A stretch of DNA of 64,000 nt, from NCBI GenBank assembly GCA_964650645.1, contig CAZYUH010000001.1:475099-539098 (forward strand). Reading direction: 5' to 3'. The notes beneath the pieces are model-generated. The model searched no databases and was not told the DNA's origin. It was given only the letters and a program-made list of their open reading frames with translations. Each line of letters begins with the position of its first letter. Position 1 is the stretch's first letter. The DNA is from an uncultured Candidatus Saccharibacteria bacterium (GTDB taxonomy: Bacteria > Patescibacteriota > Minisyncoccia > Phycocordibacterales > SBAW01). The translations under genes were made by a program, and so were the position numbers. Shown here piece by piece: positions 6,412-54,614 of the stretch.

Positions 6412-8484
<2,073 letters not shown>

Positions 8485-8592
8485 CTCCGTAAAAGCAAGC
8501 GTTCCGGAGTGCGGGAATTTTTTGCTAAAAATTCCCTAACCTCGATTCCGTCGAATCTACGGACACTCCGGAACGCTTGCTTTTGCTCCGTA
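8485..8592. repeat. MITE-like palindromic element: 21-bp near-perfect terminal inverted repeats (AAAAGCAAGCGTTCCGGAGTG / CACTCCGGAACGCTTGCTTTT) flanked by direct CTCCGTA, with a nested 10-bp hairpin
   Basis: Seen directly: arms at 8491-8512 and 8564-8584, direct CTCCGTA at 8485-8491 and 8586-8592, inner GGGAATTTTT-tgct-AAAAATTCCC hairpin; begins right after the gyrB stop codon. Confidence 0.5.
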
Positions 8593-8594
8593 CC

Positions 8595-8627
8595 AAAAAA
8601 CTCCCCGGATATTCCGGGGAGTTTTTT
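8595..8627. terminator. bidirectional terminator (A6-CTCCCCGG-atat-CCGGGGAG-T6)
   Basis: Perfect hairpin flanked by an A-tract and a T-tract between gyrB (+) and the CARDB gene (-). Confidence 0.75.
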
Positions 8628-8654
8628 GCATAGCGTATGTTATTCCGCGAAGCC

Positions 8655-9620
8655 CTAGAACACCTGGTAGGTCGTAACCGCGGTGTTGTTGTAGTCGCTC
8701 GACTCCTGCACCTGGTTCATGGGGTCGACCTCGATGGTCGCCTGGGCCTGGCCGCCGTAGTAGCCGCCCTGCGCCGGCACGACGTCGTAGCCGAGCGTGT
8801 AGACTATCCTGTCGCCCGGGTAGAGCATCTGCTGGCCGCCCGAAGGATAGACGTAGAGGGGCTGGTAGGGAAGCACGGCGTTGAAGGTCCAGCCCGCGGG
8901 CGCCGCGTTGGTGCCGATGTTGGTGATGACGAACTGGAGGCTGATGCGCGAGCCCGCCTGCGCCTGCGTCGGAGCGGCGGTAATCTGCACCGCGAGGTCG
9001 GGCGCGCCGTAAAGATTCTGGGTGCGGCCCGACGGGACGTAAGTCGTCGCGGGCTTGGCGGGCGTCACCGGCTTTGCAGCGGGGGCGGCCGGCTTGGGCT
9101 CGGCGGGCGCGGCCGGGGCGGCTGCGGGCGTGGTGCTCGCGCTCACGGTCGTCTTCGCCGTCCCTTTTACCGCTATGGTGCCGTCGGAGAGGCGGGTCGC
9201 GGCGACGGTAAGCGTGGTCGACGCCTCCTTAACGCCCGGCGCGAGCACGGGGATTATCGGCATGGACGAGGTCGCGTTCACGTAATTGAACGGCGTGTCG
9301 CACTTCACGAGCTGGAAGGCGCCGGTAGGGACGGGCGCGGCGAACGCGAGGCCCGGGGAGCAGGCGTAGGAAACGGCGTACGAGTACTCGCCGTCCTTGC
9401 CCGCATGCTTCCATGAAAGAGGGAACGCCTTGTCGGATACCGACTGCGCGGGGGCGGACGCGGTCAGGGTCTCCTTGGTCTGGCCGATGGAGCCGAAGAA
9501 CGTGGGGAGGTAGAACGCGAGCTGGATAATGCCCCATGCGCCCAGCAATAAAATAGCTATCAGGCCGATGACGGCTATGACGCGCAGGAAGTTCTCCCGG
9601 AACGTAGGTGTGGGTGCCAT
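8655..9620 (-). CDS. membrane-anchored surface protein with Pro/Ala/Thr-rich linker and C-terminal CARDB-like domain
   Basis: Internal ATG 9620 (MAPTPTFRENFLRVIAVIGLIAILLLGAWG signal anchor); linker AAPAAPAEPKPAAPAAKPVTPAKP; C-terminal pattern DLAVQITAAP...ITNIGTNAAP...EVDPMNQVQESSDYNNTA resembles CARDB. Confidence 0.55.
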   Translation of the reverse strand: MAPTPTFRENFLRVIAVIGLIAILLLGAWGIIQLAFYLPTFFGSIGQTKETLTASAPAQSVSDKAFPLSWKHAGKDGEYSYAVSYACSPGLAFAAPVPTGAFQLVKCDTPFNYVNATSSMPIIPVLAPGVKEASTTLTVAATRLSDGTIAVKGTAKTTVSASTTPAAAPAAPAEPKPAAPAAKPVTPAKPATTYVPSGRTQNLYGAPDLAVQITAAPTQAQAGSRISLQFVITNIGTNAAPAGWTFNAVLPYQPLYVYPSGGQQMLYPGDRIVYTLGYDVVPAQGGYYGGQAQATIEVDPMNQVQESSDYNNTAVTTYQVF

Positions 9621-10423: not shown

Positions 10424-10489
10424 GCTGGCAAGCCGTACAGGCGCTTTCCTGTAATGGGAAATGCGCCTTGCCGCGGGGCTTAGCCGCGG
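10424..10489 (+). promoter_or_regulatory. structured 5'-leader element related to the 28257 and 53983 repeats (GGCAAGC...GCTTGCC outer stem enclosing a CTTTCC-loop-GGAAA hairpin, then a CCGCGG hairpin)
   Basis: CTGGCAAGCCGTACAGGCGCTTTCCTGTAATGGGAAATGCGCCTTGCCG matches the core of elements A and B. Confidence 0.4.
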
Positions 10490-10526: not shown

Positions 10527-12305
10527 ATGGCCAAGCCAATCTACGTAAATGCGAAAGGTCAGCGCGTCGCTGAGGCTGATTCGGGCCAGTGGAGGGAAGT
10601 AAACGCTGCGGGCGAGCCGAAAGGCCCGTTCGCGGATTCTCCATTCAAGCATGGAGCCAATCCCCAGCCTGAATCATCGCCAGCTGCGCGAGCGGATGTG
10701 CCGGACGAAATCCGGCGCGTCGCTTCCGAGCTGGAATCGCTCAAAGCAAAGCTTAACGCCTTGCAGGAGTCGAAACCGGATCGCGGCCAGCTCAACCGGG
10801 CTGTCGAGGAGCTAGTAAGCCTCGCCAAGCAGGTGGGTGAACTGCGTGTCGCCTTTGGCGGCGCGGAACAGATCGAAGCGTTCGTTAAGAGCGTTGGCGA
10901 TCTGGCCGGGCAAATCCAAGAGCTGGACAAGCGCATCAACCAAGTCAGTGACAAGGTGGATGCCACTGCCGATACTCTCAATGAGGCCGGCAGAGGGGTA
11001 GTCGATCGCTTCAAGGCGGTTGAAGCCCGCATCAAGGAGCTCGAAAGCCGTCCGGCTGAAACCGTAGAACCTTCCAATCCTCACCCCCATACATCATCGC
11101 CCCGCGATGATGCGGGGCAAAAGAAGGAGGAGGCAATGCCTCAGACTGAGAATCGAACTGAGACGACGTCTAATTCCCAAGCTTCGCAACCGCCTCGCGG
11201 CGATGCGGGGCAAAAGGAGAAGTTCATGTCATCCTTCAGGTCTAATCCTATCGCGGTTTTCGGAGCTGCGGCGGTCGTTGCTTTCCTTGGCTGGTTGGTA
11301 TTCGGCTTCAGTCATGCGCCGCAGAAGGTAACGACCGCACTGGGCACCGTCGATAACGGCTCTGCCGTTGTTGCCGAGACCCCGGCCCAGCGCGACCGCC
11401 GCTTCGCGGAGATCGCGGGAGCGACCTTCGACCAGCGCATCCAGCCGATCGACAGGGACCTGGAGAAGCTCAAGTCAAAGACTGACGGCTTGACCAGCAA
11501 CCTTTCCGACCTGGGCACCCAGGTTGCCAAGGTTGAAAAGAGCGTCGCGTCGGGCATCGAGAAGGTGATGGCCCAGCTGGAGAAGGTGGTAAACGCCAAG
11601 ACGTCGTCCGATACGGACGAGGTCGAGGCCAAGCGCCTTGCCCAGATTAAGGCAGAATGTTTGCCTGATTCGGAAACGACGAAGGGCTTGGACCTGAAGA
11701 AGGACCTGCCCGAAGAAACGTTCCAGTCTGTCTTGCGCATCTGCCGCGCGGAGAAAGAGGAGAAGATGCGCCAGGCTCAGACGCCTGTCGGGTCCCTTCC
11801 TTCGCCTCAGGCGCGGACGCTTCCCGCGTCCGTGAACGCGGCGGACCTTCCCGAGGCTGCGGATGATTCGTCATTCCAGCCGCAGGGTGCCGATGCATCC
11901 GGGGATGCGGGGGACGGACAGTCCGCCGCTTCCTTGGGAGGCGACGACCTGACGGGGCCCTACGACCCCCGGACGGCCAAGGCAATGTCACCAGGCGTTG
12001 CGCACGTTGCGCAGGCGGGGTACATGGGCCCGGGCGTCGGCGGCCCCGGATTCGGACCTGTAGGTCCCGGGTTCGGGCCTGGTCCCCGCGGCGGCCGTAT
12101 CAGCGGTCCTCGGTGTCCTCGCGGAAGCGCCTTCAATCCGCGGTACGGGAAGTGCATCGGAACCCGATTGCATGATTTACCCGTATCTCCCCAGATGGGG
12201 CAAATACTCAGCACGTGCAGGGATATTGTCACGCGCGAAGTGTGGAAGAACGGACACCTCACCCAGCAGCAGAAGGGAATCGGCTGCCGGCGTCCGGCCT
12301 ACTAA
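10527..12305 (+). CDS. bitopic coiled-coil membrane protein (592 aa), internal duplicated PRxDAGQK motif, Gly/Pro- and Cys-containing C-terminus
   Basis: AGGAGGG RBS 5 nt before the ATG; heptad-like segments on both sides of the single TM (AVFGAAAVVAFLGWLVFGF); no homolog recognised. Confidence 0.6.
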   Translation: MAKPIYVNAKGQRVAEADSGQWREVNAAGEPKGPFADSPFKHGANPQPESSPAARADVPDEIRRVASELESLKAKLNALQESKPDRGQLNRAVEELVSLAKQVGELRVAFGGAEQIEAFVKSVGDLAGQIQELDKRINQVSDKVDATADTLNEAGRGVVDRFKAVEARIKELESRPAETVEPSNPHPHTSSPRDDAGQKKEEAMPQTENRTETTSNSQASQPPRGDAGQKEKFMSSFRSNPIAVFGAAAVVAFLGWLVFGFSHAPQKVTTALGTVDNGSAVVAETPAQRDRRFAEIAGATFDQRIQPIDRDLEKLKSKTDGLTSNLSDLGTQVAKVEKSVASGIEKVMAQLEKVVNAKTSSDTDEVEAKRLAQIKAECLPDSETTKGLDLKKDLPEETFQSVLRICRAEKEEKMRQAQTPVGSLPSPQARTLPASVNAADLPEAADDSSFQPQGADASGDAGDGQSAASLGGDDLTGPYDPRTAKAMSPGVAHVAQAGYMGPGVGGPGFGPVGPGFGPGPRGGRISGPRCPRGSAFNPRYGKCIGTRLHDLPVSPQMGQILSTCRDIVTREVWKNGHLTQQQKGIGCRRPAY

Positions 12306-12462: not shown

Positions 12463-13524
12463 ATGACTACCATTATAAAGAACATCATCGGTGCAGCGTT
12501 CGCGCTCATGGCGCTCGCCCTCCCGGTCGGTTCCGCTTTCGCGGCCGATCTTGACCTGGGTAGCTATGACACCGGCTGGTCGGATACGGGTTACTACGAT
12601 TCATACGATGCGTCGTACGACAGCTACTACGACACCGGCTGGACGGACACCGGCTACTACGATACGTACGATGCGTCGTACGATACCGGCTGGGTCGACA
12701 CCGGCTACTACGATACGTACGATGCGTCGTATGACACTGGCTGGGTCGACACCGGCTACTATGACACCTACTCTCCGTCGTACAGCACCGGCTACTCGAT
12801 GCCTTCCTTCGGCGGGATGTCCTTCGGCGGCTCCTCGTTCGGCGGCGGCTACGGCTACGGGATGCCTTCGTTCGGCACGCCCAACTACGCCTACCGCCAG
12901 GCCAACTACCCCCAGTTCCTGCCCCCGTCCAATACGGTAGTCGAGACCAACACCTGCACCGACAACTCCTGCAACTACGTCGACAACAGCATCGTCGACA
13001 ACAGCGTGGTGGACAACAGCGTCGTCGACAACAGCGTCACCATAGAGAACTCCTTCAACAACCAGGAGAAGAAGCGCGAGCGCCGCGACGACTACTGCTA
13101 CGACTACAACTACGGCAACCAGCAGGGCTACGGCCAGCAGGGCTACACCTACGGCTCGTACGCTTACCAGGGCAACTGCTACAGCTACGCCGCCCCGATA
13201 CCGCTGCCGCCGGTCAACACCACCCCGTACATCACGCTCTCGCAGACCCCGTACACCGGCCTCGACCTCGGGCCCTTCGGCGAGGTGCTCTACTGGACCT
13301 TCCTCGTCCTGTGGTGCCTGGGCGCCGCGTACCTGGTCGTCGTCAAGCGCGTCCAGAACAGGCTCGTCGGCTTCCTTAACGGCTTCCTGTTCGGCGGCGC
13401 ATCCGCCGCGGCCGCAGCGCCCGCTGCCCGCGCCGCTCACGCTCCGCAGGCTGCCGCAGCATCCGCTCCGCTCGTAGAAGAGGGCATCGACCCCTTCATC
13501 ATGAGCCAGATCAAGCGCTCCTAA
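12463..13524 (+). CDS. secreted Tyr/Asp/Gly/Thr-rich tandem-repeat protein with C-terminal TM segment
   Basis: Signal peptide MTTIIKNIIGAAFALMALALPVGSAFA; 4 x 17-aa repeats (YDTGWxDTGYYDTYDAS); VDNS pentapeptide repeats; GY/YG-rich tract; TPYTG + hydrophobic + KR near the C-terminus. Confidence 0.65.
   Translation: MTTIIKNIIGAAFALMALALPVGSAFAADLDLGSYDTGWSDTGYYDSYDASYDSYYDTGWTDTGYYDTYDASYDTGWVDTGYYDTYDASYDTGWVDTGYYDTYSPSYSTGYSMPSFGGMSFGGSSFGGGYGYGMPSFGTPNYAYRQANYPQFLPPSNTVVETNTCTDNSCNYVDNSIVDNSVVDNSVVDNSVTIENSFNNQEKKRERRDDYCYDYNYGNQQGYGQQGYTYGSYAYQGNCYSYAAPIPLPPVNTTPYITLSQTPYTGLDLGPFGEVLYWTFLVLWCLGAAYLVVVKRVQNRLVGFLNGFLFGGASAAAAAPAARAAHAPQAAAASAPLVEEGIDPFIMSQIKRS
12571..12780 (+). repeat. 4 x 51-nt tandem direct repeats, coding (inside CDS 12463..13524)
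   Basis: Units tacgatacgtacgatgcgtcgtacgataccggctgggtcgacaccggctac, nearly identical at 12655-12705 and 12706-12756. Confidence 0.8.
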
Positions 13525-13597
13525 TCCCTACAGGGAAGCGCCGTCCGCTAGTCCTAACGTGCAGCGAATCCACTGCATGGCGAGTGCCCCGAGAAAC

Positions 13598-13625
13598 CCC
13601 CGCCCACGGCGGGGGTTTCGCCTTA
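13598..13625 (+). terminator. intrinsic terminator (AAACCCCCGCC-cac-GGCGGGGGTTT)
   Basis: GC hairpin + T-tract after the CDS ending 13524. Confidence 0.7.
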
Positions 13626-13654
13626 TTGCTATCTTCATGCAAGTCGGCTATTAT
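13626..13654 (+). promoter_or_regulatory. sigma70-type promoter TTGCTA-17-TATTAT
   Basis: Upstream of the ATG 13685 (RBS GGAAAGAG). Confidence 0.55.
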
Positions 13655-13684
13655 GGCGGCCATTAGCAGGAAAGAGCATATTTT

Positions 13685-14131
13685 ATGAAGAACTACGCGG
13701 TTTCAGCGGCATCGGCGCTCGCGCTCGCAATGGCGGTACTGGCCCCCTCGTCCGCCCTGGCCTATTGCAACGGGGCGGGGAGCACGTGCGTCCAGAGCAA
13801 CGCCTACTCGAAGCCGTACTACAACAGCCAGTACGTGAACCCGAACGCGTTCGCGGGGCAGTACGGAGGCTACGGCTACGGCGGGTACGCGCCGTACGGC
13901 GGCTATGGCGGGTTCGGCGGCTACTACGGGCAGGGCTACGGGTACGGCTACCAGCAGCCCCTGTACTTCCCGGTCTACAACACGACCTTCCCGGGCTACT
14001 ACGGGTTCGGCGGCTACTACGGCCAGAACTACGGGTACAACAATTACGCCTACAACTACGGATACGACTACGGCTATAACTACGGGTACGACTACGGCGG
14101 GTACGACTACGCCTACGATTACTGGTACTAG
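13685..14131 (+). CDS. small secreted Gly/Tyr-rich low-complexity protein (148 aa)
   Basis: Signal peptide MKNYAVSAASALALAMAVLAPSSALA; remainder about 60% G/Y with GYGYG, YGGY and NYGY repeats; own promoter and terminator. Confidence 0.6.
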   Translation: MKNYAVSAASALALAMAVLAPSSALAYCNGAGSTCVQSNAYSKPYYNSQYVNPNAFAGQYGGYGYGGYAPYGGYGGFGGYYGQGYGYGYQQPLYFPVYNTTFPGYYGFGGYYGQNYGYNNYAYNYGYDYGYNYGYDYGGYDYAYDYWY

Positions 14132-16012: not shown

Positions 16013-16078
16013 TATCCCTCTAACAAAGTTGTATCAAGGTTCAACCTTGATATGGGTGGCTTTGATAGGGGTGCGGAG

Positions 16079-19000
16079 TTACAGGGCCTTGAGCGCCTCG
16101 GTGACTATCGAGAACTCGCCGTTGCGGTTGGAGATGCGGCCCTTTATCGCGATGCAGGCGTCGGGGCGCAGGATGGGCTTGTACTCGGCGTAGCTCTTGG
16201 GGAAGACCACTGCTTCGACCGCGCCCGAGAAGTCGGCAAGCTTTATAAACGCCATCTGGTCGCCATTCTTGGTAAGCAGAACGCGCAGGCTCTCTATCAT
16301 GCCGGCGACCACGGTGGTGGTGCCGGGGTAGGAGCGCTCCTTTATCTGCGCGAGGTTGAGGGGGCGCCGGTCGAGCTTCTCCTTGAACTTGTCCAAAGGG
16401 TGGCCCGAAACGTAGAGGCCCAGCAGCTCCTTCTCCCACGCGAGGCGCTGGTCCTGGGTCGCGGGCGGGGCCGGCGGCACGCGTATCTCGCTCATGCCCT
16501 CGACGTCGGCGAAGAGGGAATCGTGCATCTTCTCGGCGCCGGCGTCGCGGTGGTACTGCAGGAGCTGCTCGATGTGCGCGAGCATCGCGCCGCGCTCGCC
16601 CATGGAGTCGAGCGCCCCGCACATGATGAGGCTCTCGAGCCCCTTCTTGTTGAGCCCGTTGTCGGTGACGCGGGTAAGGAAGTCCGACAGCGAGGCGAAG
16701 GGGCCGTTCGCGCGCCGCTCATTGATGATGGAGTCGGCCACGCCGCGGCCGAAGTTCTTTATGGAATAGAGGCCGAAGCGGATGGAATCGGGGGAGGCCG
16801 GGGAGGTTTCGGAAGCTGTAGGCGTGGCGGAAGCAACAGGTGCCCCGGCGACGCTATCCTCCTCTCTTGCGGATCGGAGCGTCGCCGAAACACCTGTTGC
16901 TTCCGCCGGGCTTGCAGTCTCTGCCTTGCCTGCCGGAGCGCTCCCCAGTATCACCGTGAAGTCGCCGAAGGACTCGTTGACGTCGGGCGCGAGCATGGGG
17001 ATGCCCATGCGCTTGCACTCGGCGACCATGACGGACACCTTCTCCACGTCGCCCGCTTCCGCCGTGAGCACCGCGGTCATGTACTCGACCGGGTAGTTGG
17101 CCTTCATGTAGGCGGTCTGGTAGGAGACGCGCCCGTAGCTCGCAGAGTGCGCCTTGTTGAAGCCGTACGCGGCGAAGGGCTCAATCCATGCCCACACCTG
17201 CTCTGCCTTCTTCTGCGGCCACCCGGAATGCTCGACGCATCCCTTGATGAACTTCTCGCGCTGGGCGGCCATCTCCTCGGGGATCTTCTTGCCGACCGCC
17301 TTGCGGAACTTGTCCACCTCGCCCCAGCTGTAGCCCGCCAGCTGGTTGGCCATGATGAGCAGGTCGTCCTGGTACACGAGGATGCCGTAGGTCTGCCTGA
17401 GGATGGGCTCCATCGCGCGGTCGAGGTAGCGGATGAGCGCGGGGTTGTGCTTGCGCTCGATGTACTGCGGGATGAACTGCATCGGGCCCGGGCGGTAGAG
17501 CGCCACCATCGCGTTGATGTCGTGGATGGTCGTGGGGCGCAGCTCCTTGAGGAAGCGCGTCATGCCCGAGCCGTTGAGCTGGAACGTGGCCTCGGTCTCG
17601 CCGCGCGTGAGCATGTCGAAGGTGCGCTTGTCGTCCAGAGGTATCGCCTCGATGTCTATCCTTTCGCCGCGCGTGCGCTCCACGAGGTTGACCGCGTTGG
17701 CGAGGATGGTGAGGTTGCGTATGCCGAGGAAGTCGAACTTGGTGAGCCCCGCGCCGTCCTCGCCCACGGAGTACATGTCGTACTGCGTGATTATCTTGCC
17801 GCCCTTGGGGTCGAGCTGGAGCGGCGCGAACTCCACCAGCGGCACGGGCGAAATGACGACGCCCGCGGCGTGCACGCCCACGTGGCGCGCGCACCCTTCT
17901 ATCTTCTGGCCGAGGCCTATTATCTCGCGCACCTGCGGGTCGGCCTTGTGCATCTTCGCGAGCTCGGGGTTCTCCTGCATGGCGCGCTCGAGCGTCATGG
18001 GGAAGCCCTGGCTGCCCATCGGGATTTCCTTGGCTATCGCGTCGCCCAGGCCGTAGGGCAGGCCCAGCGCGCGGGCAACGTCGCGCACGACGCCGCGCGC
18101 GAGCATGGTGCCGAAGGTGCCTATCTGCGCCACATGCTCCGTGCCGTACTTGGCGCGGGCGTAGTCTATGACCTCGTCGCGCCTGTCGTCGGCGAAGTCC
18201 ATGTCGATGTCGGGGGCCGAGGGGCGCTCGGGGTTGAGGAAGCGCTCGAAGGGGATCTTGTAGGAAAGCGGCTCGATCTTGGTTATCCGCAGGAGGTAGG
18301 TGACCATGGAGCCCGCGACCGAGCCGCGGATGTTGGTGTAGATGTCGTTCTCGCGCGCGAAGCGTATGAGGTCCTCCACCACCAGGAAGTACGCCGCGTA
18401 GCCCTTGAACTTGATGATGCCCAGCTCGTACTCGAGCCGCTCCATGACGTCGTCGCGGCCCTCGAGCCCGCGCGGCCTGAGGCCCGCCAGGCACAGCTCG
18501 CGCAGGCGGTCGTCGGCGGTCACGCCCTCGGGCAGGGCGAAATGGGGGAACACGAACTTGCCGAGCGTGAGCTCCAGATTGCACTTTTCCGCGATCTCGA
18601 GCGACGCCTTCAGCGCCTCGTCGCCGAGCTTCGCGCGCATCTCGCTTTCGTTCAGGAACGAGTAGTCTATCTCCTCGCCGTCCATGGTCATGCCGTCGTC
18701 CGCCGGGCCGCGGTTCTCTATCGCGCGCATCGTCTCCCATGCGCGGCGGTCCTCCGGGGAAAGGTAGTACGTCTCGTGCGTCGGCATGATGTAGAAGTCG
18801 CCGCCCCAGCGCTTCCTGTGCGCGGCGCTCAGGGACGACTCCGCCCGCTCGAGTGCGACGAGGCCGCCCGCGCGCGCGTCGAGCATCGCGGCGGTGATGG
18901 GGCGGCCCTGGGGGTCCTCGATGTGCGACTCGGTGACGAGCTTCATGAGGTTCTTGTAGCCCTCGAGGTCCTTGGCGTAGAGCAAAATCCGGTGGTGGTC

Positions 19001-19216
19001 CTCAAGCGTCGCGTCGAGCCCGATGATGGGCTTGATGCCTTTCTTATCGCACTCCATGTAGAACTCTATCGCGCCGTAGAGGTTATCCATGTCGGTTAGC
19101 GCGAGCGCCTCGACGCCCTCTTCCTTGGCCTTCTTCACGAGATCGCCGATTTTGGGCAGGGCGCGCAGCAGCGAGAAGTGCGAGTGGACATGCAGCGGTA
19201 CGAAGGAGGCGGCCAT
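16079..19216 (-). CDS. dnaE: DNA polymerase III alpha subunit, with a low-complexity Ala/Ser/Thr/Pro insert
   Basis: PHP domain start (FVPLHVHSHFSLL), polymerase core motifs, OB fold near the C-terminus; insert AGKAETASPAEATGVSATLRSAREEDSVAGAPVASATPTASETSPASPDS. The antisense ORF 16052..19099 is spurious. Confidence 0.95.
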   Translation of the reverse strand: MAASFVPLHVHSHFSLLRALPKIGDLVKKAKEEGVEALALTDMDNLYGAIEFYMECDKKGIKPIIGLDATLEDHHRILLYAKDLEGYKNLMKLVTESHIEDPQGRPITAAMLDARAGGLVALERAESSLSAAHRKRWGGDFYIMPTHETYYLSPEDRRAWETMRAIENRGPADDGMTMDGEEIDYSFLNESEMRAKLGDEALKASLEIAEKCNLELTLGKFVFPHFALPEGVTADDRLRELCLAGLRPRGLEGRDDVMERLEYELGIIKFKGYAAYFLVVEDLIRFARENDIYTNIRGSVAGSMVTYLLRITKIEPLSYKIPFERFLNPERPSAPDIDMDFADDRRDEVIDYARAKYGTEHVAQIGTFGTMLARGVVRDVARALGLPYGLGDAIAKEIPMGSQGFPMTLERAMQENPELAKMHKADPQVREIIGLGQKIEGCARHVGVHAAGVVISPVPLVEFAPLQLDPKGGKIITQYDMYSVGEDGAGLTKFDFLGIRNLTILANAVNLVERTRGERIDIEAIPLDDKRTFDMLTRGETEATFQLNGSGMTRFLKELRPTTIHDINAMVALYRPGPMQFIPQYIERKHNPALIRYLDRAMEPILRQTYGILVYQDDLLIMANQLAGYSWGEVDKFRKAVGKKIPEEMAAQREKFIKGCVEHSGWPQKKAEQVWAWIEPFAAYGFNKAHSASYGRVSYQTAYMKANYPVEYMTAVLTAEAGDVEKVSVMVAECKRMGIPMLAPDVNESFGDFTVILGSAPAGKAETASPAEATGVSATLRSAREEDSVAGAPVASATPTASETSPASPDSIRFGLYSIKNFGRGVADSIINERRANGPFASLSDFLTRVTDNGLNKKGLESLIMCGALDSMGERGAMLAHIEQLLQYHRDAGAEKMHDSLFADVEGMSEIRVPPAPPATQDQRLAWEKELLGLYVSGHPLDKFKEKLDRRPLNLAQIKERSYPGTTTVVAGMIESLRVLLTKNGDQMAFIKLADFSGAVEAVVFPKSYAEYKPILRPDACIAIKGRISNRNGEFSIVTEALKAL

Positions 19217-27881: not shown

Positions 27882-28256
27882 ATGGCCACGGAGAAGGACC
27901 AGGAGTTTTTGGAATTCGTCGTCAAGGGGCTCGTCGAGCATCCCGAGGACATAAAAGTGAGCCGGGTCGTGGACGAGATGGGCGTTCTCCTGACGCTCGA
28001 CCTCAATGCCGAGGATATGGGCAAGGTCATAGGCCGCTCGGGCAATACCGCCAAGGCCATCCGCACCCTCCTGCGCGTCGTCGGGATGAAGCACAACGCG
28101 CGCGTCAATTTAAAGATTAACGAGCCGGTCGGCGGCCAGCGCAGCATGGACGCCGGCGGCTCAGCGGCCCAGGGCTGGGACGGCACCCACGAGGCGCCCG
28201 CCACTCCCGCCATGAAGTCCATAGACGAGGCCATGGGCGAGCTCGATAATTTCTAA
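27882..28256 (+). CDS. KH-domain RNA-binding protein (KhpA/YlqC-like)
   Basis: GxxG loop VIGRSGNTAKAIRTLL; conserved position after rpsP. Confidence 0.85.
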   Translation: MATEKDQEFLEFVVKGLVEHPEDIKVSRVVDEMGVLLTLDLNAEDMGKVIGRSGNTAKAIRTLLRVVGMKHNARVNLKINEPVGGQRSMDAGGSAAQGWDGTHEAPATPAMKSIDEAMGELDNF

Positions 28257-28378
28257 AGCTCCGCGAAATCGGCCGGCAAGCGATACCCGACTTTTCTGAT
28301 GAAAATCGGCTGATCCTCATTCCCGAGGGTCGTCAGACGATGCCTGCGGAGCCGCTTGCCGGCCGATTTCGCTTCGAC
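28257..28378 (+). repeat. structured intergenic element, copy A: CTCCGC / GAAATCGGCCGGCAAGCG stems enclosing a CCGAC-TTTTC-tgat-GAAAA-TCGG hairpin; begins at the stop codon
   Basis: Second copy at 53983..54092 (about 80% identical over about 110 nt) and a related core at 10424..10489; 18-bp inverted repeat GAAATCGGCCGGCAAGCG / CGCTTGCCGGCCGATTTC. Confidence 0.55.
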
Positions 28379-28380
28379 AC

Positions 28381-28416
28381 GCGAAAGCCGCCTGCAGGGC
28401 GGCTTTCGCTTTTGCG
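28381..28416 (+). terminator. intrinsic terminator (GAAAGCCGCC-tgcag-GGCGGCTTTC + GCTTTTG)
   Basis: 10-bp stem followed by a T-run. Confidence 0.65.
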
Positions 28417-28438
28417 CGTTCCGCGCTACCTTGGGTGC

Positions 28439-28873
28439 ATGGAGAAGGGGCTTATACGCGTATCGGTCATCGCCTTCTGCCATGACGGCAAGGGCAGGTA
28501 TCTCCTGGGCAAGCGCTCGGCGAATTGCCGCGACGAGCAGGGCAGATGGGATCCGGTCGCGGGCGGCGGCCTCAAGTTCGGGGAGACGGTAGAGGATGCC
28601 GCGCGCCGCGAAATAATGGAAGAAGGCTGCGCGGAAGCGAAAGAGCTGGAATTTCTCGGGTATCGAAACGTCTTCCGCGAGCAGGACGGCCAGCCGACGC
28701 ACTGGGTGGCCATGGACTTCAGGGCGCTTATAGACCCGGCGGAGGCGAAGATAGGCGAGCCGCACAAGTGCGATGAGCAGAAGTGGGTTACTATCGATGA
28801 GCTTGAAAGGATGCCCGACCTGCACTCGCAATTCCCAGTATTTATAGAAAGCTACCGAAGCAAACTTGTATGA
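28439..28873 (+). CDS. NUDIX hydrolase (144 aa)
   Basis: Nudix box GGGLKFGETVEDAARREIMEEGCAE; start at internal ATG 28439 (MEKGLIRVSVIAF); the 5' part of the track ORF lies over repeat A. Stop overlaps the trmD ATG (ATGA). Confidence 0.8.
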   Translation: MEKGLIRVSVIAFCHDGKGRYLLGKRSANCRDEQGRWDPVAGGGLKFGETVEDAARREIMEEGCAEAKELEFLGYRNVFREQDGQPTHWVAMDFRALIDPAEAKIGEPHKCDEQKWVTIDELERMPDLHSQFPVFIESYRSKLV

Positions 28874-53460: not shown

Positions 53461-53982
53461 ATGCATACCATAAGGCCCAAGGAGGACCAGAACTTCTGGA
53501 ACTTCCTCTTTTCCGTATTCTTTATCATCGTGCTGGTCGCGGGGCTCTGGGTCATGCGCGACGTGCGCGGCGGGTTCCTGACCTCGGTGCCGGCGTTCGA
53601 CGCCTTCATGATGGCCTTCGCCGCGTTCCGCATCACGCGCCTCGTGGTGTACGACAAGATAACCCGCTGGTTCCGCGAGCTCTTCGCGAAGAGGGCCGTA
53701 GTGGAGCGCGACGGCGTGCCGTACGTGGAAGTGACGCCGTACTCCAAGGGCTTTGCCGCCACGGTCTACGACCTCCTCAGCTGCCCGTGGTGCATCGGCA
53801 TCTGGTCCTCGGCCATAGTCGTGTTCGCGTACTTCATATTCCCGTGGGCGTGGTCGGTCATCTTCTTCCTCGCCATCGCGGGCGCAGGCTCGCTCCTGCA
53901 GGTTATCGCGAACGGTGTCGGCTGGCGCGCCGAGATCCTCAAGATGGAGGCCCAGGAGCAGAAGCGCGACCTGCGCTTGTAA
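53461..53982 (+). CDS. DUF1360-family membrane protein (CPWCIGIW motif)
   Basis: ATG 53461 after AGGGGC; TM helices and the conserved LSCPWCIGIWSS segment. Confidence 0.6.
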   Translation: MHTIRPKEDQNFWNFLFSVFFIIVLVAGLWVMRDVRGGFLTSVPAFDAFMMAFAAFRITRLVVYDKITRWFRELFAKRAVVERDGVPYVEVTPYSKGFAATVYDLLSCPWCIGIWSSAIVVFAYFIFPWAWSVIFFLAIAGAGSLLQVIANGVGWRAEILKMEAQEQKRDLRL

Positions 53983-54092
53983 AGGCTCCGCAAATCCTGA
54001 CCGGCAAGCGGTACCCGGCTTTTCTGGGGAAAACCGGCTGATCCTCGGTCGCCGCCTGCGGAGCCGCTTGCCGGTCAGATTCGCTCCGCATC
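53983..54092 (+). repeat. structured intergenic element, copy B (homolog of 28257..28378), begins at the stop codon; flanked by direct GCTCCGC
   Basis: GCTCCGCaaatcctgaCCGGCAAGCGGTACCCGGCTTTTCTGGGGAAAACCGGCTGATCCTC...CTGCGGAGCCGCTTGCCGGtcagattcGCTCCGC; compensatory A:T -> G:C change in the inner hairpin relative to copy A. Confidence 0.55.
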
Positions 54093-54127
54093 AAAAAAAC
54101 TCCCCGAGGGGAGTTTTTTCGCGAAAT
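54093..54127. terminator. bidirectional terminator (A7-CTCCCC-gag-GGGGAG-T6), same type as the one after gyrB
   Basis: Perfect hairpin with flanking A-tract and T-tract. Confidence 0.75.
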
Positions 54128-54143
54128 TGATTCCGCGGAGCCT

Positions 54144-54614
54144 TTAGAACCTGACCGGAATCTCGAGCGACTTGTCGTTCTCGGGGAGGCCGGAGGGGTT
54201 GTCGTTGCGCAGCACTACGGTGCCCACGGAGCCCGCGGGCTGGGCCGGGAAGGGGAGCGTTATCATGAACGGCACGTACTCCTCGGTCATCCAGTCGCCC
54301 TGCGCCTGCGCCGGGCCTTCGGCTATGACCGCGCCCGCCGCGTCCTTTATCTGGACGGGGAAGGAGGCCTCGAAGTACCAGGTGCCGCGCGCGCGGCCCC
54401 ACATGGTGAGCGGCGAGGAGATCGAGTCGTTGTCCTTGAGGGACTCGACGACCAGCAAGTCCTCGTAGGAGGGGTTCGGCGCCGGCGGCGTCGTGGCCGC
54501 CTGGCCGTCGCCCAGCGTCGGGGCCTTGGTGTTGCCCGGGAGCATGAAAAGGATAATGGCCGCGATAATGATAAGTATGCCCACTATGATGACCGCCCAT
54601 CCTGTCTTGTTCAT
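54144..54614 (-). CDS. membrane-anchored hypothetical protein (N-terminal TM, Pro/Thr linker, beta-rich domain)
   Basis: ATG 54614; TATACT -10 ends 6 nt upstream, so leaderless; last gene of the GH130 operon direction. Confidence 0.5.
   Translation of the reverse strand: MNKTGWAVIIVGILIIIAAIILFMLPGNTKAPTLGDGQAATTPPAPNPSYEDLLVVESLKDNDSISSPLTMWGRARGTWYFEASFPVQIKDAAGAVIAEGPAQAQGDWMTEEYVPFMITLPFPAQPAGSVGTVVLRNDNPSGLPENDKSLEIPVRF

Follow-up and report, generated by a model that had tools for sequence, protein, structure and literature searches.

Three intergenic hairpin elements, here named A, B and D, occupy unrelated loci in a 64,000-nucleotide stretch of DNA from an uncultured Candidatus Saccharibacteria bacterium (contig CAZYUH010000001.1, positions 475,099 to 539,098; the window hereafter). 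Our analysis suggests, at a probability of roughly 0.6, that they form a small family of nonautonomous, palindromic mobile DNA elements of the MITE (miniature inverted-repeat transposable element) or REPIN type, which have a specific target and are co-transcribed within 3' untranslated regions (UTRs). Copy A is fixed in the host species, copy B is polymorphic within it, and neither is kept beyond the species; in this they behave as mobile or otherwise gained DNA does, and not as a conserved cis-regulatory RNA. A first-pass annotation, made from the sequence of the window alone, had offered two explanations for A and B: a functional 3'-UTR or small RNA, or a nonautonomous mobile element whose target is the sequence immediately 3' of stop codons. 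The second is supported by empty orthologous sites, by flanking repeats of 6-7 nt, and by the presence of the family at three unrelated loci. The first may still apply as a side effect, but the element is missing from sister strains and species.

Three copies share a common plan

The readable DNA of the host genome comprises ~75 kb (the window plus ~11 kb past its ends) of a genome of ~0.75 Mb. Copies A and B are present as first described, and are the only matches in the window to a sequence profile built from the pair. The first-pass annotation had proposed a covariance-model search; a model built from A and B alone (R1), scanned across the window with filters off, recovers both and yields one extra copy, D (match 8484-8592, 50.9 bits, E 2e-9). 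This third full copy, which the annotation lacked, lies directly 3' of the gyrB stop codon. The annotation had instead listed a "reduced core" at 10424-10489. This candidate ("copy C") was missed by the A+B profile and by both covariance models (E <= 10; E <= 1) with filters off, and although it is the best non-self match of a core-only profile, it reaches only E 1.4 and folds into a different hairpin.

All three copies follow the same order: a stop codon, 0-2 nt, the flank motif (G)CTCCG(C/T), a left arm, two hairpins, a complement of the flank motif, a right arm, the flank motif again, and a terminator. Hairpin 1 has a conserved plan (pyrimidine-rich, with a T-run, a TGNN loop and an A-run), and hairpin 2 is short and variable. 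The element measures 91-106 bp between the flank repeats, and its outer stem 18-23 bp. In A this stem is a perfect 20 bp (GCGAAATCGGCCGGCAAGCG / CGCTTGCCGGCCGATTTCGC), in B a perfect 15-bp core continues to ~20 bp with one bulge and one mismatch, and in D a perfect stem of 21-23 bp is accompanied by a 10-bp inner hairpin. The flank motifs are GCTCCGC/GCTTCGA in A, GCTCCGC/GCTCCGC in B and CTCCGT/CTCCGT in D, and their internal complement always adjoins the right arm (GCGGAGC, 7 nt, in A; GCGGAGCC, 9 nt, in B; TACGGA, 6 nt, in D). The MITE-like architecture first proposed, of terminal inverted repeats with short direct flanks, is borne out in its long stems and 6-7 nt repeats, although the two repeats of A agree at only 5/7 positions.

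Every copy lies on the coding strand of the upstream gene, between its stop codon and an intrinsic terminator, in a single orientation; A and B begin 1-2 nt after TAA. The host genes are unrelated, encoding a KH protein of the KhpA type (PF13083) at A, a DUF1360 membrane protein at B and GyrB at D. By the homologues of its KH protein, the host belongs to Candidatus Adlerbacteria (Patescibacteria).

Searches beyond the host genome returned no further members. Viral contigs were queried with three patterns, including one 17-mer, and checked by nhmmer or a further model (R2), without yielding a copy. Exact scans of a genome collection and a metagenome contig collection with the 19-mer CTGCGGAGCCGCTTGCCGG, the longest block common to A and B, gave 28 and 37 matches, all of them chance coding DNA from unrelated phyla and none with GGCAAGCG upstream; both collections evidently lack the window's own species. 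A chimeric six-frame peptide query from A and B matched none of the called proteins, arginine-rich words having probably swamped the candidates.

The elements are absent from orthologous sites

Ten conspecific contigs, with 98.8-100% identity to the window, carry copy A unchanged. Five other Adlerbacteria lineages lack the element at this site; their KH proteins are 93% (L076), 89% (L077/78), 85% (L079/80), 94% (L104/105) and 95% (L103) identical to that of the window. In four of these the KH gene is followed by trmD, either directly or via a terminator, and in L103 by a terminator and an HD-domain gene. Copy A separates the KH gene from a NUDIX gene, which is itself a separate, lineage-specific insertion into a variable slot. 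This slot, between the KH gene and trmD of the rpsP-KH-trmD operon, holds NUDIX in the window (28439-28873) and a YfbR-like HD-domain gene in L103 (4066-4869), and is empty in L076, L077, L079 and L104 (L104 7130-7178); in the window and in L103 alike, there is a 4-nt overlap between the inserted gene and the start of trmD.

At site B, the element is absent from three other Adlerbacteria lineages. The two convergent genes overlap in L101/L102, and L099 and L100 carry only a stop codon with (A)GCTTCGC / GGTTTCGT and a terminator. Because these outgroups are empty, the element is an insertion relative to the ancestral state at B. The site is also empty in eight conspecific contigs from several samples (L106, L108-L111, L113, L115 and L116), where a 58-nt spacer comprises TAG GA GCTCCGC, with one left-hand copy of the motif, then a terminator and GCGGAGCC. 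The filled spacer of 161 nt occurs in the window and in L114 only. A comparison of insertion sites for target duplications, as suggested by the first-pass annotation, accordingly finds one GCTCCGC in empty B and two in filled B, but the two alleles differ over a 200-nt patch, and the same repeat is found at all loci. Copy D is present in one other strain contig (L107), where it is identical by eye.

Evidence that weighs against mobility

Several observations count against the mobile-element reading. Only three copies are visible in the ~75 kb of host DNA, the extensions past the window ends having contributed none, and ~190 kb of related species searched with filters off contains none. Pfam annotation of the same ~75 kb reveals no transposase, RAYT (REP-associated tyrosine transposase) or recombinase gene and lists no Y1_Tnp domain; those parts of the window without precomputed annotation, when searched for a transposase, contained housekeeping genes only. 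The terminal arms of D differ strongly from those of A and B, unlike classical MITE families, and the arms are not self-palindromic REPs, unlike REPINs. The covariation between flank and internal complement amounts to a single substitution event, in which a C to T change in the flank of D is matched by an internal G to A change; a column-based count of this pairing shows none, D being shifted by one column in the model-fitted alignment.

The alleles at B also differ by more than a clean insertion. A strongly diverged patch of ~200 nt (53936-54135, compared with 1860-1965 of L106, an empty-B contig ~98.7% identical to the window) comprises the last 45 nt of the DUF1360 gene, of which ~21 differ, and the terminator. 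The patch is sharply bounded, and its flanks have 0-2 differences per 100 nt (98-100% identity). To judge by its sequence, the filled allele seems to be a segment acquired through recombination with a more distant lineage that already possessed the element together with a D-like terminator. Copy B may therefore have arrived by recombination with a foreign allele rather than by transposition in the window strain, and such an import weakens the case for recent transposition in that strain. Precise deletion between direct repeats could also generate apparently empty sites; the outgroups argue that the empty state is ancestral.

Compensatory pairing does not distinguish RNA from DNA

Folding compared with shuffled sequences gave z-scores of -7.3 (A), -5.0 (B) and -12.6 (D), with stem energies of -55 to -63 kcal/mol. 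When A, B and D are aligned over the outer stem and hairpin 1, 97.7% of cells form standard pairs and 16/29 pairs have changed on both sides, albeit in three sequences only and in an alignment fitted to the model. None of 500 shuffles reaches this level, and slid controls are 29-53% paired. The compensatory A:T to G:C change in the inner hairpin (CCGAC vs CCGGC), from which the first-pass annotation had argued for a functional RNA structure, is confirmed, and the outer stems of A and B differ by an additional compensated change (GG/CC vs TGA/TCA). Compensation therefore extends far beyond the single pair first noted; it does not point specifically to RNA. The ~30 pairs in the main stems of each copy are all Watson-Crick, with G-U confined to minor hairpins or helix edges, and the two DNA strands fold about equally well. 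Since the pairing is purely Watson-Crick and symmetric on both strands, compensation fails to discriminate an RNA from a DNA element, and the constraint looks like that on DNA rather than RNA.

These data bear on the explanation that survives best beside mobility, in which selection on RNA pairing keeps a cis-acting 3'-UTR structure (such as an mRNA 3'-end stabilizer, RNase III site or termination enhancer) in place, and duplication has spread it only secondarily. The position of every copy between stop codon and terminator, on the coding strand, means that all are certainly transcribed; the folds are very stable, and the strong covariation includes the inner hairpin, which is no terminal repeat. 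In hairpin 2, A and B have one T-G wobble, which can pair on the plus strand only, and an RNase III and an RNB-family exonuclease are encoded nearby. We nonetheless consider this explanation distinctly unlikely. None of the other species examined has the element in these 3' UTRs, and most conspecific strains lack B; the three host genes are unrelated; and the lack of G-U in the main stems and the equal folding of both strands are unexpected under selection on RNA alone. A search of Rfam 15 found nothing at the gathering threshold, and relaxing the cutoff to E <= 1 gave no match on the elements; tRNA-like and other known RNAs found no support in Rfam or in the sequence. As part of the upstream gene's 3' UTR, the hairpin could incidentally block 3' exonucleases or attract RNase III. 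Such an RNA-level effect would be secondary, because the element is dispensable, being absent in sister strains and species.

Terminators and flanking motifs

The first-pass annotation had assigned copy A a terminator of its own. This terminator (28381-28413) belongs to the locus rather than to the element, because the element-free relatives L103, L104 and L079 have a homologous one, AAGCCGCC...GGCGGCTTT, directly downstream of the KH gene. B and D present a different arrangement. Here, homology between the copies runs on through the terminator, and the word AAAAACTCCCCG occurs in the window at B and D only (0.28 expected by chance). It is followed by a distal ATTCCGCG(G/A)AGCC that adjoins the stop codon of the convergent gene, so the repeated unit fills the whole convergent intergenic region.

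This arrangement invites an explanation by recombination, whereby terminator modules bounded by GCTCCGC ... GCGGAGCC would be exchanged or converted between loci and lineages at 7-8 nt inverted repeats, by short-homology or site-specific recombination, and the hairpin would travel along. Such a cassette would fit the unit shared by B and D, which spans the intergenic region with the same terminator AAAAACTCCCCG and distal ATTCCGCGRAGCC. It would also fit the empty B allele, which keeps the outer GCTCCGC / GCGGAGCC around a different interior, the end of the divergent patch exactly at the distal repeat, and the chimeric nature of B, which combines A-like arms with a D-like terminator. However, the left edge of the patch falls inside the DUF1360 gene rather than at GCTCCGC, as in ordinary homologous import, copy A lies upstream of a native terminator without the distal GCGGAGCC, and the window and its extensions contain no visible recombinase. 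We give this explanation slim odds.

The last explanation, a stand-alone small RNA or riboswitch-like switch whose crossing helices (CUCCGC:GCGGAG vs the long stem) form either a pseudoknot or alternative folds, is very improbable: the crossing complementarity is present in all three copies, always adjoining the right arm, and in A the 3' arm UUUCGC could by its sequence pair with the terminator 5' half GCGAAA, but the only promoter-like site lies within the KH coding sequence, with none inside or directly upstream of the element, and the lack of an Rfam match and the dispensability of the element across strains count here as well. The crossing CTCCGC...GCGGAG complementarity, described earlier for A and B, is real; a true pseudoknot is rejected on geometry, being sterically implausible when the crossing helices are joined by zero linker nucleotides and the long stem spans 18-23 bp. 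The anti-terminator pairing of A was likewise discarded, as it is not conserved in B or D.

A stop codon followed by GCTCCGC was also considered as a general post-stop signal. Outside the copies and their convergent partners, the only confirmed gene-end match is dnaE, which ends TAA CTCCGC (16073-16081, minus strand); other matches to the pattern were not compared with gene ends. The flank motif was not seen upstream of the other terminators found.

The convergent genes show related endings. At B, both genes end with the same 12 nt, TAAAGGCTCCGC (53980-53991, plus strand; 54135-54146, minus strand), and at D the convergent partner ends TAG G GCTTCGC (8647-8657, minus strand). An extended terminator stem has the flank motif at its base, and the motif occurs in the empty B allele as well. 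On the minus strand at B, the letters after GCTCCGC are GGAATC-AATTTC-GC, similar to element ends that have collapsed (GAAATC...GATTTC GC).

Comparison with known mobile elements

The Correia elements of Neisseria, ERIC/IRU of enterobacteria and bcr1 of the Bacillus cereus group are bacterial MITEs that form transcribed hairpins. They resemble the present family in small size, terminal inverted repeats, short direct flanks and insertion at gene ends, as well as in their co-transcribed stem-loops and their presence/absence polymorphism between strains. Copies A, B and D are short and non-coding (91-106 bp) and have terminal inverted repeats, with arms of 20 bp in A, 15 bp plus an extension in B and 21 bp in D. 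These arms are not common to all copies (AAAAGCAAGCGTTCCGGAGTG in D vs GAAATCGGCCGGCAAGCG in A/B); D and A/B share only a GCAAGCG core and an A-rich tip, and the window and its extensions contain no autonomous insertion sequence (IS) or transposase with which the arms could be shared. The interior plan is conserved instead, the reverse of what is usual in classical MITEs, and the same flank motif accompanies all three copies, which makes it a specific site rather than a random duplicated target.

REPINs are doublets of REP sequences that form hairpins and are mobilized by RAYT transposases; compensatory changes are frequent, and a pairing tail has been proposed to recognize the target (Bertels & Rainey 2011, PMC3116915). 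The present family resembles them as a nonautonomous extragenic unit of ~100 nt with one long hairpin, two-sided compensation and a proposed single-stranded end complementary to another part of the element. It differs from REPINs in that its arms are not palindromic REPs, no RAYT is seen, three copies are visible rather than hundreds, and each has a flanking direct repeat of 6-7 nt and a specific position between stop codon and terminator.

In the IS200/IS605 family, IS608 chooses its target by pairing with an internal guide (PMC3201880, PMC5934647). It has a short specific target to the left of the element, a guide by the hairpin foot, a fixed orientation and recognition of structure rather than sequence, features that the present elements may share. 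IS608 carries a separate subterminal hairpin at either end, uses guides of 4 nt and lacks a flanking repeat, whereas the present element has one long terminal stem, a complement of 6-9 nt and the motif on both sides, and no TnpA was found in the ~75 kb. The IS200/IS605 layout of subterminal hairpins without terminal or flanking repeats is not what we see. Integron attC sites were rejected, for the copies lack RYYYAAC ... GTTRRRY cores (their ends read GAAATC...GATTTC, AAATCC...GATTC and AAAAGC...GCTTTT), and the NUDIX gene 3' of A overlaps trmD and has no second attC-like site. Overall, the family works like the small palindromic extragenic repeats (REPINs and Correia/ERIC/bcr1 MITEs), yet it does not pass the membership tests of any single system.

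A possible mechanism

If A, B and D are mobile, their movement would depend on an enzyme acting in trans from another part of the ~0.75-Mb genome, and this enzyme would recognize the hairpin and flank motif rather than a fixed terminal sequence. We tentatively favor a structure- and pairing-guided single-strand mechanism (REPIN/RAYT or IS200/IS605-like), because the 6-9 nt flank complement always adjoins the right arm, though even this mode is more of a lead than an expectation. Under such a mechanism, the right "repeat" would be the element's own end and the left one the target, an arrangement that would look like a target duplication; the paired substitutions in flank and interior of D would be consistent with it. 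Classical cut-and-paste movement of a MITE by a DDE transposase, with a 7-bp target duplication, is doubtful. The fit is poor, because D has other arm sequences than A/B, the copies keep one interior plan, and the same motif is present at all three sites; an enzyme that recognizes hairpins and short pairings in single-stranded DNA would suit these features better. The remaining share of probability goes to spread between terminator modules by short-homology recombination.

More speculatively, the segment next to the right arm, GCGGAGC in copies A and B and TACGGA in D, might be a built-in guide that chooses the insertion site by pairing with the post-stop (G)CTCCG(C/T) on which extended terminator stems are based. 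The element would then be a miniature passenger of a single-strand or recombinase-type enzyme, and its target would shift when the guide mutates, as D suggests. We regard this specific version as improbable.

Coordinates and other features of the window

Table 1. Positions of copies A, B and D, their parts and adjoining features in the window.
Feature	Position	Strand	Remark
Copy A, whole unit (both flank repeats and the hairpin element between them)	28258..28378	+	R1 151.7 bits
Stop codon of KH (KhpA-like) gene	28254-28256	+	copy A starts 1 nt after
A left direct repeat GCTCCGC	28258..28264	+	sequence
A left arm GAAATCGGCCGGCAAGCG	28265..28282	+	20-bp stem once adjacent GC is counted
A inner hairpin 1, CCGA-C-TTTTC / TGAT / GAAAA-TCGG	28287..28309	+	fold, alignment
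A hairpin 2, GATCCTC-ATTCCC-GAGGGTC	28312..28331	+	shortened in B to GATC-CTC-GGTC
A internal GCGGAGC	28346..28352	+	reverse complement of flank repeat; adjoins right arm
A right arm CGCTTGCCGGCCGATTTC	28353..28370	+	fold
A right direct repeat GCTTCGA	28371..28377	+	5/7 identical to left repeat
Intrinsic terminator after A	28381..28413	+	native to locus, outside element
Copy B, whole unit	53985..54090	+	2 nt after stop of DUF1360 gene (53980-53982); R1 122.9 bits
B left direct repeat GCTCCGC	53985..53991	+	sequence
B left arm AAATCCTGACCGGCAAGCGG	53992..54011	+	fold
B inner hairpin 1, CCGG-C-TTTTC / TGGG / GAAAA-CCGG	54015..54037	+	fold, alignment
B internal GCGGAGCC	54058..54065	+	complement of flank GGCTCCGC; overlaps right-arm start
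B right arm CCGCTTGCCGGTCAGATTC	54064..54082	+	fold
B right direct repeat GCTCCGC	54083..54089	+	perfect copy of left repeat
B terminator AAAAAAACTCCCC..GGGGAGTTTTTT and distal ATTCCGCGGAGCC	54093..54142	+	adjoins stop of convergent Gmad2 gene; homologous to region after D
Copy D, whole unit	8485..8592	+	directly after gyrB stop TAA (8482-8484); R1 match, E 2e-9
D left flank CTCCGT		+	
D left arm AAAAGCAAGCGTTCCGGAGTG	8491-8511	+	
D hairpin 1	8513-8536	+	
D internal TACGGA	8558-8563	+	
D right arm CACTCCGGAACGCTTGCTTTT	8564-8584	+	
D 3' end GCTCCGTA	8585-8592	+	
D terminator CAAAAAACTCCCCGGA..TCCGGGGAGTTTTTTG and distal TTCCGCGAAGCC	8594..8654	+	adjoins stop (8655-8657) of convergent gene
Hairpin upstream of gene starting at 10527	10424..10489	+	unrelated; not a supported family member

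A second palindrome lies within the minus-strand dnaE gene (DNA polymerase III alpha; 16079-19216). This near-perfect palindrome of 102 nt (16816-16917) is in frame, has 40-nt arms that are 83% complementary with inner perfect stems, and encodes a low-complexity stretch of Ala, Thr, Ser and Pro. It is the best non-family match of model R2 (25 bits, E 2e-4) and could be an in-frame palindromic insertion, a kind known from Rickettsia. DnaE comprises 1044-1045 aa in the host species and L079, 984 aa in L076 and 976 aa in L077.

Elsewhere, rpoB and rpoC form a single fused gene of 2283 aa (~30.2-37.1 kb of the window; L029 12375-19226), a fusion common to the host species and every related Adlerbacteria locus fetched (2288 aa in L077). 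Coding tandem repeats at 12500-14100, rich in Tyr, Asp, Thr and Gly and with periods of 51/63 nt and 12-15 nt, lie in open reading frames (ORFs) without a Pfam match that probably encode a secreted or surface protein. A sub-threshold Rfam match to the Pseudomonas rnk leader (RF01772) at 13539-13627, plus strand (39.9 bits vs a gathering threshold of 55, E 0.003), is probably due to chance. Finally, in L110 (5575-6261, compared with ~55.4-57.5 kb of the window) an ORF of 228 aa without a Pfam match and a GH130 gene of 497 aa replace the 641-aa GH130 gene, which is present in L106, L108 and L109; the L110 form is a strain-level rearrangement or insertion.

Implications

Our literature search found no described miniature mobile repeats for the candidate phyla radiation (CPR)/Patescibacteria. 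The family described here offers a caution for motif hunters, as strong covariation, a 3'-UTR position and a stable fold can all stem from mobile DNA hairpins. At a practical level, the insertion at B is usable as a strain marker in metagenomes that contain the host organism. If the internal complement does act as a guide, the family would be a compact natural case of pairing-directed insertion beside terminators. More broadly, these elements suggest that even a CPR genome of ~0.75 Mb carries active or recently active palindromic passengers, which differ between strains as closely related as the window and L106.

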